A stretch of DNA of 64,000 nucleotides, taken from Escherichia phage vB_Eco_F26. Location of the stretch: the sequence record OP870145.1; one strand, given 5' to 3'. Shown here piece by piece: positions 2,278 through 53,717 of the stretch. The notes under the pieces were generated by a model that made no database searches, was not told the DNA's origin, and saw only the letters and a list, made by a program, of their open reading frames with translations. The first letter of the stretch is position 1; every line of letters starts with the position of its first letter. Made by a program: the position numbers and the translations under genes.

Positions 2278-2580
2278 TTATTTACCTTTAATTACTTTAG
2301 CTGCTTCGATAGCCGCTTGCTGAAGGTCATCCATAGACATACCGAATTTAGAAGCAAAGTTATCAATTTTCTTTTCGACAGCATTCAAAGGCTTGGCCTG
2401 TTTACCTTCATTAGCGCCAGGAAGAGCGAGAATACGCTCTTTGTCAATATAAAGGCTTACAAGTTTCTTACGGTCTTTATCGGACAAATCATGAAATGAA
2501 TGGGCCTTTTTATTTATAGCGGCTTCTAATTTACCTGCACTCACTCGCGCTTCAGTAATAAATTCTTGATATGTTTTCAT
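2278..2580 (-). CDS. internal protein (IP) family, 100 aa, with capsid-targeting sequence
   Basis: N-terminus MKTYQEFITEA is the T-even IP capsid-targeting sequence ending in an I-x-E prohead-protease site; size and position next to e resemble T4 ipII. Confidence 0.75.
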   Translation of the reverse strand: MKTYQEFITEARVSAGKLEAAINKKAHSFHDLSDKDRKKLVSLYIDKERILALPGANEGKQAKPLNAVEKKIDNFASKFGMSMDDLQQAAIEAAKVIKGK

Positions 2581-2634
2581 ATGTTTCCTTTAAATATTTT
2601 AATTAATAATTTATCTATTCAAGTAACTGTGAAT

Positions 2635-2664
2635 ATACTATCACAATTCTAGGAGAAAGTAAAC
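2635..2664 (-). promoter_or_regulatory. T4 early-type promoter for IP gene (GTTTAC -35 / TAGTAT -10)
   Basis: Minus-strand motif about 55 nt upstream of ATG 2580. Confidence 0.45.
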
Positions 2665-2668
2665 AACT

Positions 2669-3199
<531 letters not shown>

Positions 3200-9171: not shown

Positions 9172-9657
9172 TTATTTTATGTAATATTTATTTAAAAACT
9201 TTCTAGCTTGAGTATGGCTAACATTTATAGCGTTTGCATAATTTTTAATAAAACCTCGTTCATCCATATTAAAATTTTCTAATATTTTTAATCGTCTAGT
9301 TATCTCATCTTGGCTTAAGGTACTTGCATTATTTTTAGAAATTTTTTCTAAGGACTGTGCCGAGTGTTTTCGACCATTAAAATTAAAATTTTTAGATTTT
9401 GGAGGAAATCTATTATTTAGTCTCGCATCTTTTGTATTTTGATTATTAGTTGCGCAATATATGTTATTTAATGAATATGGTCCTTTATCGCCGAAACGGC
9501 ACATGCAGTATTCATGACCCTTTCTTCCACGCTTATCATATTTTCCCGTTGATTTCCACCAATGCAGCCATTCATCAAAAGTTAAATTCCATTCAATGTT
9601 TCTACGTATAGCAGAATTCCGCTGAGAAATATATTTTGCATAATCTTCTTTCATCAC
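9172..9657 (-). CDS. HNH-family homing endonuclease-like protein with NUMOD-type DNA-binding motifs, embedded in the tRNA cluster
   Basis: 161 aa; GHEYCMCRFGDKGPYSLNNIYCATNNQN (HNH_3-like), GRKHSAQSLEKI repeat, C-terminal helix-turn-helix-like segment; T4 has a GIY-YIG seg gene in the analogous region. Confidence 0.6.
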   Translation of the reverse strand: MMKEDYAKYISQRNSAIRRNIEWNLTFDEWLHWWKSTGKYDKRGRKGHEYCMCRFGDKGPYSLNNIYCATNNQNTKDARLNNRFPPKSKNFNFNGRKHSAQSLEKISKNNASTLSQDEITRRLKILENFNMDERGFIKNYANAINVSHTQARKFLNKYYIK

Positions 9658-31444: not shown

Positions 31445-33955
<2,511 letters not shown>

Positions 33956-49542: not shown

Positions 49543-50223
49543 TTATTTTAATGTTATGAAAGAAGAATTACGAGTTTCGCGAATTAGAACTGATCCATCG
49601 CGATTAATATAATAAATTAAGCTAAATAATGTTTGGTGTGCTGACGCATGTTCAAAACTAGTTGGGTGAGATTTCCAATCCGGAGTTTCAGCAATCCATT
49701 GATAAATCCACCAAGGAACAGTGCAGAATCCTGGATTTTTTCCAATCAGTTGAAGATTCGGACTAAAGTTTTCCGGAAGAGTAAATACAGACGGCTTTTC
49801 AGATTCAATAATCTCAGCTACAGCTTGTTCAAACTTTTCTTCAACAAACGGAGTGTCTTCAATCAAAACTGAGGTATTTTCAGGAATTTTATCCGTTTCT
49901 ACTACTTCAATTTTAATGTCAGATTTAACCGGAGAATCAATCAAAAGTGCTGCTTCTGGATTGACTTCTTCATCGTCATATTTTAATCCCTCTGCGGCAT
50001 CAGCAGCATCAATTAAGTCTTTAATAGATAACCCATCAGTCTCCGGCATAGGTTCACTAGCGAGCTTCTGGAGGGCTTCTTCAATATCAACAACGATATT
50101 ATCAAAAGATTTATTCTTTTTGACTTTTATACCAAACTGTTCAGCATATTCAGCTAATTTAGCTTTAGCTTCTTTATTATCATCAAGAGCCTTCAGCTCT
50201 GCAATATAATCTTTATCTATCAT
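49543..50223 (-). CDS. inh: inhibitor of prohead protease Inh
   Basis: 226 aa; synteny. Confidence 0.8.
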   Translation of the reverse strand: MIDKDYIAELKALDDNKEAKAKLAEYAEQFGIKVKKNKSFDNIVVDIEEALQKLASEPMPETDGLSIKDLIDAADAAEGLKYDDEEVNPEAALLIDSPVKSDIKIEVVETDKIPENTSVLIEDTPFVEEKFEQAVAEIIESEKPSVFTLPENFSPNLQLIGKNPGFCTVPWWIYQWIAETPDWKSHPTSFEHASAHQTLFSLIYYINRDGSVLIRETRNSSFITLK

Positions 50224-50236
50224 AATATTTCCTCAG

Positions 50237-50244
50237 TATAAATA
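50237..50244 (+). promoter_or_regulatory. late promoter TATAAATA upstream of uvsW
   Basis: Octamer 29 nt upstream of ATG 50274. Confidence 0.55.
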
Positions 50245-50273
50245 TAGATATATTTATTACATGGTATTTAGAC

Positions 50274-51785
50274 ATGACTGACATTAAAGTACATTTTTAT
50301 GATTTTAGTCACGTGAGAATTGATTGTGAAGAAAGCACATTTCATGAACTCCGTGATTTCTTTAGCTTTGAAGCTGATGGGTATCGTTTTAACCCTCGCT
50401 TCAGATATGGCAACTGGGATGGACGAATCCGTCTTTTAGATTATAATCGTCTTCTTCCATTCGGTTTAGTCGGGCAAATTAAAAAGTTCTGTGATAACTT
50501 TGGCTATAAAGCCTGGATTGACCCACAGATTAACGAAAAAGAAGAATTATCAAGAAAAGATTTTGATGAATGGCTTTCTAAATTAGAAATCTATTCAGGA
50601 AATAAAAGAATTGAACCACACTGGTATCAAAAAGATGCAGTGTTCGAAGGATTAGTTAATCGTCGTAGAATTCTTAATCTTCCAACATCTGCAGGTAAAT
50701 CGTTAATTCAAGCTCTGCTTGCTCGGTATTATTTGGAAAATTATGAAGGTAAAATTCTTATCATTGTTCCAACAACTGCTCTAACAACTCAGATGGCTGA
50801 TGACTTCGTTGACTATCGTTTATTCAGTCATGCAATGATAAAGAAAATTGGTGGCGGAGCATCAAAAGATGATAAATATAAAAATGATGCACCAGTCGTT
50901 GTTGGTACATGGCAAACTGTAGTAAAACAACCGAAAGAATGGTTCTCACAGTTTGGAATGATGATGAATGATGAATGCCATCTTGCTACAGGAAAAAGTA
51001 TTTCATCTATCATATCAGGTTTAAATAACTGCATGTTTAAATTTGGTCTATCAGGTTCATTACGTGACGGCAAAGCCAATATCATGCAGTATGTTGGAAT
51101 GTTTGGTGAAATATTTAAGCCAGTAACGACCTCTAAATTAATGGAAGATGGACAAGTAACTGAGTTAAAAATTAATAGTATTTTTCTTCGCTATCCCGAT
51201 GAGTTCACTACTAAATTAAAGGGAAAAACTTACCAAGAAGAAATAAAAATTATTACTGGGCTCAGTAAAAGAAATAAATGGATCGCTAAATTAGCTATTA
51301 AGCTTGCACAAAAAGATGAAAACGCTTTTGTCATGTTTAAACATGTATCGCATGGTAAAGCTATTTTCGATTTAATTAAAAATGAATACGATAAAGTTTA
51401 TTACGTATCAGGGGAAGTTGATACCGAAACCCGCAACGTAATGAAAACCTTAGCTGAAAATGGTAAAGGAATAATTATAGTAGCTAGTTATGGTGTATTT
51501 TCTACTGGTATTTCAGTTAAAAATCTGCATCATGTTGTTTTAGCGCACGGCGTTAAATCAAAAATCATTGTATTACAAACAATCGGTCGTGTATTACGTA
51601 AGCATGGTTCTAAGACAATCGCAACTGTCTGGGACCTCATAGATGACGCGGGCGTGGTTTCTAAATCAAAAACATCTTCTAAAAAATACTCGCATTTAAA
51701 CTATCTTTTAAAACATGGACTTGATCGTATTCAGCGTTATGCTGATGAAAAGTTTAATTATGTGATGAAAGAGGTTAAACTTTGA
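50274..51785 (+). CDS. uvsW: RNA-DNA and DNA-DNA helicase UvsW
   Basis: 503 aa; SF2 helicase motifs (Walker A PTSAGKS, DEAH-like MMNDECH). Confidence 0.92.
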   Translation: MTDIKVHFYDFSHVRIDCEESTFHELRDFFSFEADGYRFNPRFRYGNWDGRIRLLDYNRLLPFGLVGQIKKFCDNFGYKAWIDPQINEKEELSRKDFDEWLSKLEIYSGNKRIEPHWYQKDAVFEGLVNRRRILNLPTSAGKSLIQALLARYYLENYEGKILIIVPTTALTTQMADDFVDYRLFSHAMIKKIGGGASKDDKYKNDAPVVVGTWQTVVKQPKEWFSQFGMMMNDECHLATGKSISSIISGLNNCMFKFGLSGSLRDGKANIMQYVGMFGEIFKPVTTSKLMEDGQVTELKINSIFLRYPDEFTTKLKGKTYQEEIKIITGLSKRNKWIAKLAIKLAQKDENAFVMFKHVSHGKAIFDLIKNEYDKVYYVSGEVDTETRNVMKTLAENGKGIIIVASYGVFSTGISVKNLHHVVLAHGVKSKIIVLQTIGRVLRKHGSKTIATVWDLIDDAGVVSKSKTSSKKYSHLNYLLKHGLDRIQRYADEKFNYVMKEVKL

Positions 51786-52474
51786 ATTATAAATTAATAT
51801 ATGATAATTTAATTAATAGAGCCCAGAATCGGGCTCGCCTTAATGGATACACTGAAACACATCATATAATTCCTAGATGTATGGGTGGTACAAATGATAA
51901 GTGTAATTTAGTAGAACTAACGGCTGAAGAACATTTTATAGCCCATAAACTTTTAGCTAAAATTCATCCAAATCATTACGGTATAATTAAAGCCGTTATA
52001 TGTATGGGAATGAACTCAAAGACTCATGAAAGACACGTTAATAAATCTTACGCGTGGGAACGTCGTAAAATGGCAGAACTTCAATCCGGCGAAGGTAATC
52101 CATTTTACGGAAAACACCATACGGAAGAACATAAACAATATATGTCAAAACTCATGAAAAGTCGTCCAATTACATGGGGAAATAAAATTAGTAAAACTAA
52201 AAGAATGAACCCAACGAAATGGACTGAAGAAGCTAAAAGATTACATTCAATCAATCAATCGGGTAAAAATAACGGCATGTATGGAAGGAAACATTCCGCT
52301 AAATCTATTCAGAAAATTAAAGATAACATGCCAGATAATTCAGGAGCTAATAACCCAGCTGCTAAACCTATAGAAGTAAATGGTGTTAAATATAAATGTA
52401 TGAAAGATGCTTCTAAAGCTACTGGATTATCAATGTACAAACTAAGAATACTTAGAAAAACAGTTAATTTATAA
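51782..52474 (+). CDS. freestanding HNH homing endonuclease with NUMOD3-like repeats, inserted between uvsW and uvsW.1
   Basis: HNH motif ETHHIIPRCMGGTNDKCNLVELTAEEHFIAH; GKHHTEEHKQYMSK / GRKHSAKSIQKI repeats; TTG start overlapping uvsW stop; paralogue of 32371..33183. Confidence 0.75.
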   Translation: MNYKLIYDNLINRAQNRARLNGYTETHHIIPRCMGGTNDKCNLVELTAEEHFIAHKLLAKIHPNHYGIIKAVICMGMNSKTHERHVNKSYAWERRKMAELQSGEGNPFYGKHHTEEHKQYMSKLMKSRPITWGNKISKTKRMNPTKWTEEAKRLHSINQSGKNNGMYGRKHSAKSIQKIKDNMPDNSGANNPAAKPIEVNGVKYKCMKDASKATGLSMYKLRILRKTVNL

Positions 52475-52499
52475 GGGCTTCGGCCCTTTGGAGAAAAAG

Positions 52500-52730
52500 A
52501 TGTTACTAGGATTTAAACAATTTCTTTATGAAGCTTCTATTGATGAATTTATGGGTAAAATTGCCTCTTGTCAAACATTAGAAGGTTTAGAAGAACTTGA
52601 AGCTTATTATAAGAAAAGAGTCAAAGAAACTGAATTAAAAGATACTGATGACATCTCTGTAAGAGATGCTTTGGCAGGAAAAAGAGCTGAATTAGAAGAT
52701 TCAGACGATGAAGTAGAAGAAAGCTTTTAA
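52500..52730 (+). CDS. uvsW.1: UvsW.1-like small acidic protein (76 aa)
   Basis: ATG at 52500 with GGAG SD; size and position as T4 uvsW.1. Confidence 0.65.
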   Translation: MLLGFKQFLYEASIDEFMGKIASCQTLEGLEELEAYYKKRVKETELKDTDDISVRDALAGKRAELEDSDDEVEESF

Positions 52731-52785
52731 ATTAAAAAAGGCCCAACCAAAAAGGAAGGGCCAAAACTATAGACTAAAGGTCACA

Positions 52786-52953
52786 CTATAGCAAAAGTTG
52801 TGTTTCATTTAATTGTTCTTCCGAACTTTCTGAAACTGGTAGTTCTTTAATGTAATTATAGCAAGGCCCAGGATGTACAGGACCTTTGTCTGTTTCAACA
52901 ACCAATGCAGAATCGATTGGAGTTTTACAGACAACACAAATCTTATCTGACAT
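52786..52953 (-). CDS. small Cys-containing protein (55 aa; uvsY.-2 position)
   Basis: ATG at 52953 with AAGGAGA SD; CVVC...C motif; ORF track gives 52786..53016. Confidence 0.5.
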   Translation of the reverse strand: MSDKICVVCKTPIDSALVVETDKGPVHPGPCYNYIKELPVSESSEEQLNETQLLL

Positions 52954-53076
52954 GATTGTCTCCTTTTGAATATAGTAATATTTATAAACCCATTTTAATC
53001 CGCATTTCTTGTACACGGATTAAGCAGGCTTCCATCTCTGCTAATAGTCGAAATACTTCTTTATAATCTGTCATAT

Positions 53077-53304
53077 TTACCCCATATCTCTCATATGCAT
53101 ATCAATGCCCATATCTTTAGAATAAAAATATTCATCAAGATATCCGGCAAATTTTCCTTTAATATAAAGGACATCTTCACCACATGGGTGGTCGGCCAGG
53201 ATACGAATATCCTGACGCTTAAGATTATGCTTTTTCATTAAGAATTGAATTTCCGTTTCAAATTCTTCTTCATAATTAAAAGCATCATCAATGTTATATC
53301 TCAT
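53077..53304 (-). CDS. hypothetical protein (uvsY.-1 position)
   Basis: 75 aa ORF. Confidence 0.6.
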   Translation of the reverse strand: MRYNIDDAFNYEEEFETEIQFLMKKHNLKRQDIRILADHPCGEDVLYIKGKFAGYLDEYFYSKDMGIDMHMRDMG

Positions 53305-53717
53305 TATTTTCCAGCCTCAAATGCTCGCATGTCTTGAATATGCTTAATAGCAAATCCACGCGATTTAATAGCATCAAGAGCTCCGCTACAGAAATCTAAT
53401 AAAATTCCCCAATATTGTAATGAAGTATCAACCTTTAAAACATCCTTATCAGCTGATAGAACTGTTTTCATTTCTGATTTCTCGTAACGATCCATACTAA
53501 ATTCATCACCATCTCCTCGTCCCGAGTAGTAGTCTAATTTAGCTTTAAGAGCAACTTTTTTCTGTGCATCAATTCTAAGCATTTCCTTTTTAATACTTGA
53601 ATGCTTATTGAGCCATTTACTATATAACATCACATTATTAGCTGCTTCATACTGTAATTTAGTCGAATCTATAAACACATCTTTCTTCAATTCTTCTTGA
53701 AGATCTTCTAATCTCAT
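53304..53717 (-). CDS. uvsY: recombination mediator protein UvsY
   Basis: 137 aa; recalled as T4 UvsY. Confidence 0.92.
   Translation of the reverse strand: MRLEDLQEELKKDVFIDSTKLQYEAANNVMLYSKWLNKHSSIKKEMLRIDAQKKVALKAKLDYYSGRGDGDEFSMDRYEKSEMKTVLSADKDVLKVDTSLQYWGILLDFCSGALDAIKSRGFAIKHIQDMRAFEAGK

Follow-up and report, generated by a model that had tools for sequence, protein, structure and literature searches.

The 64,000-nucleotide stretch of Escherichia phage vB_Eco_F26 (OP870145.1) analysed here, hereafter the window, is a segment of a Tequatrovirus (T4/T2/T6-like) genome and carries a free-standing HNH homing endonuclease gene (HEG) between the helicase gene uvsW and the small gene uvsW.1. 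The gene order around it is hoc, inh, uvsW, HEG, uvsW.1, uvsY.-2, uvsY.-1, uvsY, 25 and 26, and the features discussed below are collected in Table 1. The open reading frame (ORF), the HNH motif ETHHIIPRCMGGTNDKCNLVELTAEEHFIAH, the NUMOD3 repeats and the TTG start at the uvsW stop, all of which had been read from the letters in the original prediction, are confirmed. The TTG (51782–51784) shares the four letters TTGA with the uvsW stop codon TGA (51783–51785, in the context cTTTGA), and the HEG is read in a different frame from uvsW. An upstream in-frame ATG, which the original prediction had raised as a possible objection to the unusual start, is impossible because an in-frame TAA (51776–51778) lies one codon 5′ of the TTG. 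The first in-frame ATG inside the gene is codon 34, 3′ of the catalytic His-His pair, which leaves the TTG as the sole start that gives the whole nuclease domain. The junction is identical in six HEG-carrying tequatroviruses, so the TTG is not a sequencing error.

Table 1 Features of the uvsW–uvsW.1 locus and of the gene 13/14 paralogue, in window coordinates
Feature	Coordinates	Strand	Remark
T4-type late-promoter consensus TATAAATA	50237..50244	+	exact match, 30 nt 5′ of the uvsW ATG
uvsW helicase gene, 503 aa	50274..51785	+	Pfam UvsW_N 6.9e-43, ResIII, DEAD, Helicase_C; stop overlapped by HEG start codon
HEG-linked divergent 3′ tract of uvsW	51645..51785	+	last ~130–140 nt; only in HEG-carrying records
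AU-rich RNA hairpin, predicted, 11 bp	51749..51783	+	pairs the GG of the Shine–Dalgarno sequence and the UU of UUG; tequatrovirus allele only
Shine–Dalgarno sequence GAGGT	51771..51775	+	6–7 nt 5′ of TTG; arises from a Thr-to-Glu codon change in the UvsW tail relative to T4
HNH homing endonuclease gene (HEG), free-standing	51782..52474	+	230 codons, TTG start
Internal GC-rich hairpin GAGCCC-agaatc-GGGCTC	51819..51836	+	34 nt after start codon; positional counterpart of the mobE terminator hairpin
HNH (beta-beta-alpha-metal) nuclease core	51845..51949	+	ORF residues ~22–56
NUMOD3 repeat 1	52061..52147	+	residues 94–122, GEGNPFYGKHHTEEHK...; Pfam
NUMOD3 repeat 2	52250..52339	+	residues ~157–186, SGKNNGMYGRKHSAKSIQKIKDN; Pfam and alignment to I-TevI DNA-binding domain 1i3j
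C-terminal I-TevI-like strand and helix-turn-helix, predicted DNA-binding module	52358..52456	+	
Last 18 nt of HEG, AAAACAGTTAATTTATAA, encoding KTVNL*	52457..52474	+	equals native uvsW 3′ end and stop of HEG-less T4-type phages
Hairpin GGGC-TTCG-GCCC (GGGCTTCGGCCC)	52475..52486	+	native uvsW/uvsW.1 spacer element
uvsW.1, 76 aa	52500..52730	+	Pfam UvsW-1 1.7e-30; own Shine–Dalgarno GGAG 52490–52493
Paralogous Mob-type HNH HEG between genes 13 and 14	32371..33183	+	ATGA overlap, Shine–Dalgarno in last gp13 codons, internal hairpin 32406–32427

The genes on either side of the HEG are distinct. The real start of uvsW.1 is the ATG at 52500. HEG-less phages have uvsW and uvsW.1 as two genes, and the same division into two ORFs holds for resequenced T4 and for the five T4-like genomes with which T4 was compared (PMC1524935). 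The T4 reference record AF158101.6 (3680–3700 of the excerpt) retains an old sequencing error that fuses the two genes into a 587-aa coding sequence: it reads ...TTAATAAGCTTCGGCCC, where T2, RB14, IME537, KAW1E185, ESh17 and the window read ...TTATAAGGGCTTCGGCCC (window 52457–52486). An Rfam scan of 50000–53500 gave no intron, just a chance microRNA match (E 0.52). An assignment to the intron-encoded HNH endonucleases of the I-HmuI or I-TevIII type was rejected, as the HEG does not lie inside a self-splicing group I intron.

The predicted protein begins with a Mob-type HNH nuclease, which is followed by two NUMOD3 repeats and, at the C-terminus, by a putative DNA-binding module of I-TevI-like type. 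Within the HNH core, residues H27/H28, N42, H51 and H55 are invariant or nearly so across the family, and the H/N/H columns are kept in an alignment of 63 sequences. Pfam NUMOD3 (PF07460) matches in two stretches (7.4e-14, 51.8 bits against a cut-off of 20.4) and the ‘homing endonuclease’ cluster PHROG 655 matches at 3e-60. Because of its N-terminal identity to MobE (47%) and MobB (44%) and the conserved H/N/H columns, we class the enzyme as Mob-type; as judged from these alignments, it would be a Mob-type HNH nuclease fused to an I-TevI-type DNA-binding half made of two NUMOD3 repeats and a helix-turn-helix.

The 3′ end of uvsW differs between phages with and without the HEG. The window uvsW is 97–100% identical to that of T4 from 50394 to approximately 51640, then only 62–75% identical over the last ~140 nt, with 18 synonymous and 11 non-synonymous codon changes, and identity is back to approximately 100% immediately 3′ of the HEG. 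The last 130 nt of uvsW are nearly invariant in six HEG-less tequatroviruses (T4, T2, RB14, IME537, KAW1E185 and ESh17), and about 40 fixed differences in this segment are common to all HEG-carrying tequatroviruses examined. By blastn, the tract is found at 90% identity or more in about 49 records only, the same number as HEG carriers; every other phage is at most 86% identical to it, over part of its length. The tract also encodes the initiation signals of the HEG: the change of ACA to GAG makes GAGGT, and the change of TTATAA to CTTTGA makes the TTG/TGA overlap. The divergent tract is a candidate target or immunity region, and our best guess for the catalytic contact is the densest cluster of changes, approximately −130 to −94 from the uvsW stop (VKPKSANTKKKYV to VVSKSKTSSKKYS).

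At the other end of the HEG, its last 18 nt coincide with the native uvsW end, and the 3′ end of the HEG therefore reads as a captured UvsW tail, through which the ORF runs in frame. The hairpin GGGCTTCGGCCC, which the original prediction had placed between the ORF and uvsW.1, is present there, but it belongs to the native spacer: it also occurs in HEG-less T2, RB14, IME537, KAW1E185 and ESh17 and so is ancestral to the locus and no feature of the HEG. Similar anatomy is seen in other genera, most plainly in Gaprivervirus. In the Gaprivervirus phages SP18 and pEC-M719-6WT.2, attaaacaggtggaaat occurs at the uvsW end and again at the HEG end, the second copy being the native junction of HEG-less VR25. 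In Jiaodavirus, the HEG of Roth04 and PSD-D1 sits exactly in the ATGA stop/start overlap, which is recreated at the HEG 3′ end when compared with HEG-less Mexia, and the last ~180 nt of uvsW diverge one-sidedly between Roth04 and Mexia, an independent instance of the asymmetry. We also considered an L015-like lineage as the source of the Jiaodavirus HEG and its tract; identity over the last 100 nt is 87%, compared with a background of ~72%, which is too weak and confounded by protein conservation, and we dropped this origin.

The HEG is sporadically distributed among close relatives of the window. At 95% identity or more it is carried by 48 phage records, in most of which it is annotated ‘homing endonuclease’, and it lies at the same site, 693 nt long and with the TTGA overlap, in T6, HY03, PST (where it is labelled ‘mobD’), ACG-C40, PYPS2T and others. 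The copies of T6 (EcT6_00183, AP018814 110699..111391), HY03 (YP_009284046), PST and ~45 others are 96–99% identical in nucleotide sequence and have the same flanks. T4 and T2 have no HEG at uvsW/uvsW.1, and about 449 tequatrovirus-level records show an uninterrupted junction, so that, set against the 48 carriers, roughly one tequatrovirus in ten has the gene. The comparison of related phages that the original prediction called for thus finds the HEG present or absent at one site, with the TTGA junction shared by the HEG-carrying tequatroviruses, which differ among themselves in upstream uvsW background and in the status of segE. No deposited phage is identical to the window, the best matches (T6, AV121, HEMP5 and others) being ~97% identical over 24 kb. 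The label ‘mobD’ in the record of Yersinia phage PST was examined as a possible orthology to T4 mobD and rejected, judging by position alone, because the gene lies at uvsW/uvsW.1 and not at nrdC.11/mobD.1; T4 mobD is located between nrdC.11 and mobD.1 (PMC2988022).

More distant members of the family occupy the same junction. A survey returned 963 homologues, of which the full-length ones are 51–70% identical to the window protein. The genomic position of seven of these (51–68% identity) was looked up, namely those of Morganella phage Rgz1, Escherichia phage PSD2002 and five T4-like contigs from metagenomes. All seven lie between uvsW and uvsW.1 with their start on the uvsW TGA. Across 14 loci from ~9 lineages, the start codon is always NTGA at the same position and the N-terminus MNY.KIY is conserved, with ATG, GTG and TTG interchanging; the position of the start that had been proposed for the window therefore holds throughout the family. 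ATG is used by Roth04/PSE-D1, Rgz1, L011 and L013, TTG by the tequatroviruses, SP18/M719, L012 and PSD2002, and GTG by L014 and L015. In the Gaprivervirus-type records SP18 (2497–3192) and pEC-M719-6WT.2 (2497–3192), the HEG is annotated from an internal ATG, and the deposited proteins are missing 32 residues at the N-terminus, among them the beginning of the HNH domain. As homology to the family begins at the TTG and MNY.KIY is conserved, these annotations are 93 nt too short.

Within the uvsW operon, there is no further late-promoter consensus site between 50237–50244 and the HEG. The window contains 23 exact late-promoter matches against 9.9 expected. A sequence just inside the HEG, TATAAATT at 51788–51795, matches the T4 late-promoter consensus at 7 of 8 positions; as it lies within the ORF, a transcript starting there would be unable to encode the full enzyme. 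The start codon and the Shine–Dalgarno sequence vary together: all four TTG lineages have GAGGT or AGGT at a spacing of 6, with a free energy for the anti-Shine–Dalgarno duplex of −5.9 to −6.5 kcal/mol, all four ATG lineages are without a Shine–Dalgarno sequence (−0.4 to −3.0 kcal/mol), and the GTG lineages are intermediate. This suggests that the two elements may compensate each other, although the lineages are not phylogenetically independent. The proposal in the original prediction that an inefficient TTG keeps expression low is plausible but too simple, since the TTG lineages carry a good Shine–Dalgarno sequence and the start region looks tuned more than simply weakened.

RNA structure may add a further layer of control. 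A GC-rich hairpin early in the HEG (51819–51836, −13.2 kcal/mol, z-score −3.3) has positional counterparts with differing stems in 9 of 11 family members, mobE of RB3 among them, and also in the gene 13/14 paralogue described below; for nine of these 5′ coding hairpins, at most 6 of 500 synonymous recodings are as stable as the native sequence. The hairpin of T4 mobE, which lies 27 nt beyond its AUG, acts as a weak internal terminator of 30–50%, as found experimentally (PMC2790892). A second predicted hairpin, AU-rich and covering the ribosome binding site (51749–51783), has a z-score of −3.2 in a 121-nt fold and is not the minimum free energy structure in a 56-nt fold. It was considered as a conserved regulator that sequesters the ribosome binding site and rejected in that role, because in SP18, Roth04 and PSD2002 the corresponding regions are no more stable than shuffled sequences (z-scores +0.3 to +1.4).

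The identity of the gene, its sporadic distribution, the linked uvsW tract, the captured tail, the NTGA start, the purifying selection described below and the conserved hairpin lead us to conclude, with good though not full confidence, that the HEG is an intact free-standing Mob-type homing endonuclease gene with coupled late expression and homing into HEG-less uvsW 3′ ends. From these features we infer nuclease activity, the position of the target, homing, and how the TTG, the coupling and the hairpin affect expression, as follows. The HEG would be promoterless and read from the uvsW late transcript, and ribosomes stopping at the uvsW TGA would re-initiate, probably at a low level, at the overlapping UUG, aided by the GAGGT in the last uvsW codons. 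Expression is probably attenuated further by the internal GC hairpin, which matches the mapped terminator of T4 mobE in position. During mixed infection, the enzyme would nick or cut the DNA of a HEG-less phage such as T4 or T2, either within the final ~130 bp of uvsW, which are highly conserved, or at the junction, and repair from the HEG-carrying genome would copy the HEG together with the adjacent ~130–140 nt of uvsW by gene conversion. The carrier's own copy would be protected because its tract is heavily substituted and its junction split. Intronless homing is the most likely mechanism, given what is known of MobE, which nicks 122–126 nt into the neighbouring conserved gene, has a polymorphic target in mobE-carrying phages and shows co-conversion (PMC2790892, PMC2988022).

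Several observations weigh against parts of this explanation. At the level of the protein, the Pfam HNH match (16.3 bits against a cut-off of 21.4) and the I-TevI_DNA-bd match (14.7 against 27) both fall below the curated thresholds, and purifying selection at a synonymous divergence (dS) of at most 0.18 exceeds what is expected of a purely selfish element at fixation. At the level of RNA, the hairpin over the ribosome binding site is weak, not conserved in other genera and a local feature, and the GC-rich hairpin of the window only marginally beats synonymous recodings, 33 of 500 being as stable; it is followed by GCCUUAAU with no U-tract, which makes a terminator role doubtful. At the level of history, a search of the last 132 nt of uvsW in 14 HEG-carrying and HEG-less lineages gave no donor for the tract, the best identity being 63–73%. 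Varying co-conversion boundaries were sought as a sign of repeated homing, and this line was dropped because the left boundary is the same in all six HEG-carrying tequatroviruses. A single ancient acquisition, with vertical descent and recombination upstream thereafter, accounts for the shared boundary as well as repeated homing does.

Alternatively, the nuclease could have been domesticated and kept for a benefit to the phage, such as marker exclusion, recombinogenic nicks that feed UvsW/UvsX-dependent replication, or amplification of neighbouring genes. The six tequatrovirus copies of the HEG are all intact and have a ratio of non-synonymous to synonymous substitution rates (dN/dS) of 0.02–0.16 at dS of at most 0.18, from which it follows that the protein is under purifying selection, and this favours such a role. 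The family is fixed to one junction across many T4-like genera, the HEG is apparently co-transcribed and translationally coupled with a recombination helicase, and there is a precedent in SegB, a T-even homing endonuclease that gives a host-range benefit (PMC13096335). However, just ~10% of tequatrovirus-level records carry the HEG, all four combinations of segE and the HNH gene exist, so that the HEG is dispensable, the linked divergent tract is a classic homing signature, and the DNA-binding module is tied to no function besides site recognition. We therefore consider a beneficial role unlikely. Equally unlikely, in our judgement, is the broader proposal that the HEG belongs to an old lineage which selection has maintained and which has evolved together with this one junction in many T4-like genera. 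Such a lineage would have a conserved regulatory design (NTGA coupling, start/Shine–Dalgarno compensation, the mobE-type 5′ hairpin, and a captured UvsW tail that keeps both neighbours expressed) and might serve more than homing, for example marker exclusion between phages or recombination initiated by nicks and linked to UvsW and UvsW.1.

That the HEG is instead a decaying remnant, no longer expressed and with its TTG a mutated ATG on the way to a pseudogene, is very improbable. Its non-ATG start, the precedent of I-TevIII of T4 as a defunct HNH enzyme (PMC2790892) and the identical left boundary in all tequatrovirus copies, which suggests old vertical inheritance, could be read in this way, but the ORF of 230 codons is intact and begins with TTG in each of the six copies, dN/dS is far lower than 1, and the catalytic residues are retained. 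In addition, independent lineages also have TTG or GTG at this position, TTG always with a good Shine–Dalgarno sequence. An artefact, in which the true start is an internal ATG, as the SP18 and M719 records annotate 93 nt downstream, or in which uvsW, the ORF and uvsW.1 are one gene split by an intein or intron, as the fused T4 reference might suggest, is hardly credible, because DNA and protein homology begins exactly at the TTG in SP18 and M719, an internal start would remove the first part of the HNH domain, and the neighbours are separate ORFs (PMC1524935) with no Rfam intron and a HEG frame different from that of uvsW.

A second Mob-type HEG in the window lies between genes 13 and 14. The original prediction had placed one endonuclease family at these two loci, and this holds for the nuclease module of ~110 N-terminal residues, where alignment gives significant similarity (40% identity over ~113 aa, E 2e-22), but not for the DNA-binding halves: the C-terminal half of the gene 13/14 protein is unrelated to that of the uvsW HEG and consists of Cys-rich, zinc-ribbon-like repeats. 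Found in 46 phage records, the gene 13/14 HEG overlaps the gp13 stop TGA with its ATG as ATGA (window 32340–33185). Compared with T4, gene 13 differs at 11 positions within its last 35 nt, and these substitutions make GGAG and the ATG (F to V and I to V). The first 78 nt of gene 14 are identical to T4. Its hairpin at 32406–32427 (−14.1 kcal/mol) is matched in stability by 2 of 500 synonymous recodings. The integration follows the same logic as that of the uvsW HEG, with linked polymorphism on a smaller scale.

A third ORF (9172–9657, minus strand, 161 aa), in the tRNA cluster between tRNA-Met and tRNA-Ser, had been described as an endonuclease with the same repeat. The motif is indeed shared, GRKHSAQSLEKI compared with GRKHSAKSIQKI in the uvsW HEG, but nothing matches outside the 12-residue GRKHSAxSxxKI, and the endonuclease label is unsupported: the ORF has no Pfam hit, NUMOD3 and nuclease families included, has no GIY-YIG motif and is therefore not SegB-like, and belongs to PHROG 16521 of ‘unknown function’. 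It occurs sporadically, in 25 records including T2, mostly as ‘hypothetical protein’. On the basis of a single 12-residue motif, we rejected it as a third paralogue.

The 5′ end of uvsW in the window is also polymorphic. The window lacks the segE-type GIY-YIG HEG that T4, T6 and HY03 carry between inh and uvsW, and its uvsW shows an identity of only ~73% to theirs over the first ~120 nt (region 50224–50393). Together with the 3′ tract, this gives a HEG-linked polymorphic tract at each end of uvsW. All four genotypes for segE and the HNH gene are found: +/− in T4, +/+ in T6 and HY03, −/+ in the window and Killian, and −/− in T2. Further downstream, the spacer between uvsY.-2 and uvsY.-1 (52974–53100) is unrelated to the T4 and T6 versions (22–25 of 60 positions match T4) and is common to the window, HY03, G2540-3 and SYGD1. 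It is because of this spacer that most HEG-carrying relatives align to the window in two pieces.

The gene itself carries little weight as a discovery, as it is already annotated in databases and is an ordinary Mob-type homing endonuclease gene. Our literature search found no paper describing a HEG at uvsW/uvsW.1, nor work on nicking or inheritance at this locus, and a review of T4 mobile elements lists only SegE at uvsW (PMC2988022). Four points appear to be undescribed in the literature searched: the uvsW tract that encodes initiation signals, the captured tail, the junction-specific family with interchangeable starts and the conserved mobE-type hairpin; these are refinements of a well-known kind of element. 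The HEG is a clean natural example of insertion without disruption of a translationally coupled gene pair. It rewrites the last upstream codons into its own ribosome binding site and start, exits through a retained copy of the tail, and brings with it its own allele of the adjoining ~130 bp, which is presumably resistant to cleavage. There are practical consequences as well: a non-ATG start is missed by annotators, as in SP18 and pEC-M719-6WT.2, and the T6-type uvsW 3′ end is a foreign tract, which calls for caution when uvsW serves as a phylogenetic marker. Crosses of T6 with T2 or T4 offer a ready system for the HNH/NUMOD3 enzyme and for the question of mobE-type hairpin attenuation.

MobE of RB3 and T4 is among the closest known systems. 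The 47% identity extends over the N-terminal ~130 aa, with residues 1–124 aligned, and at the DNA level ~73% identity is found over the first ~160 nt. Both genes start on the upstream stop codon, are promoterless, have a GC hairpin in the 5′ coding region and are linked to a polymorphic tract in an adjacent conserved gene; for T4 mobE, experiments have shown that it lacks a promoter and shares a transcript with the gene upstream (PMC2790892). They differ in locus (nrdA/nrdB for mobE), in the side of the target gene, which is upstream of the window HEG and downstream of mobE, and in the start codon, which is AUG in mobE and TTG here. The window hairpin has no clear U-tract, unlike that of mobE, and the C-terminal half of MobE is unrelated, without the two NUMOD3 repeats and the I-TevI-type helix-turn-helix. 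Orthology with mobE was therefore rejected, as only residues 1–124 align and the locus differs; the two are paralogues by their nuclease domain only.

The similarity to T4 MobB is of the same kind, the N-terminal ~125 aa being 44% identical and the HNH core 80% identical at the DNA level, but mobB lies at a-gt.2/a-gt, encodes another C-terminus and has no 5′ hairpin (z-score −0.4; 298 of 500 recodings as stable). The comparison with I-TevI concerns its DNA-binding domain (PDB 1i3j/1t2t), to which NUMOD3 repeat 2 aligns; I-TevI differs in having a GIY-YIG nuclease and being intron-encoded, as opposed to the free-standing HNH enzyme described here. The HNH nicking enzyme I-HmuI (PDB 1u3e) is intron-encoded, comes from a Bacillus phage and shows low similarity to the window protein. 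SegE of T4, at inh/uvsW, is the other mobile endonuclease with uvsW as its target or neighbour (PMC2988022); it is a GIY-YIG enzyme of an unrelated family and occupies the opposite end of the gene.

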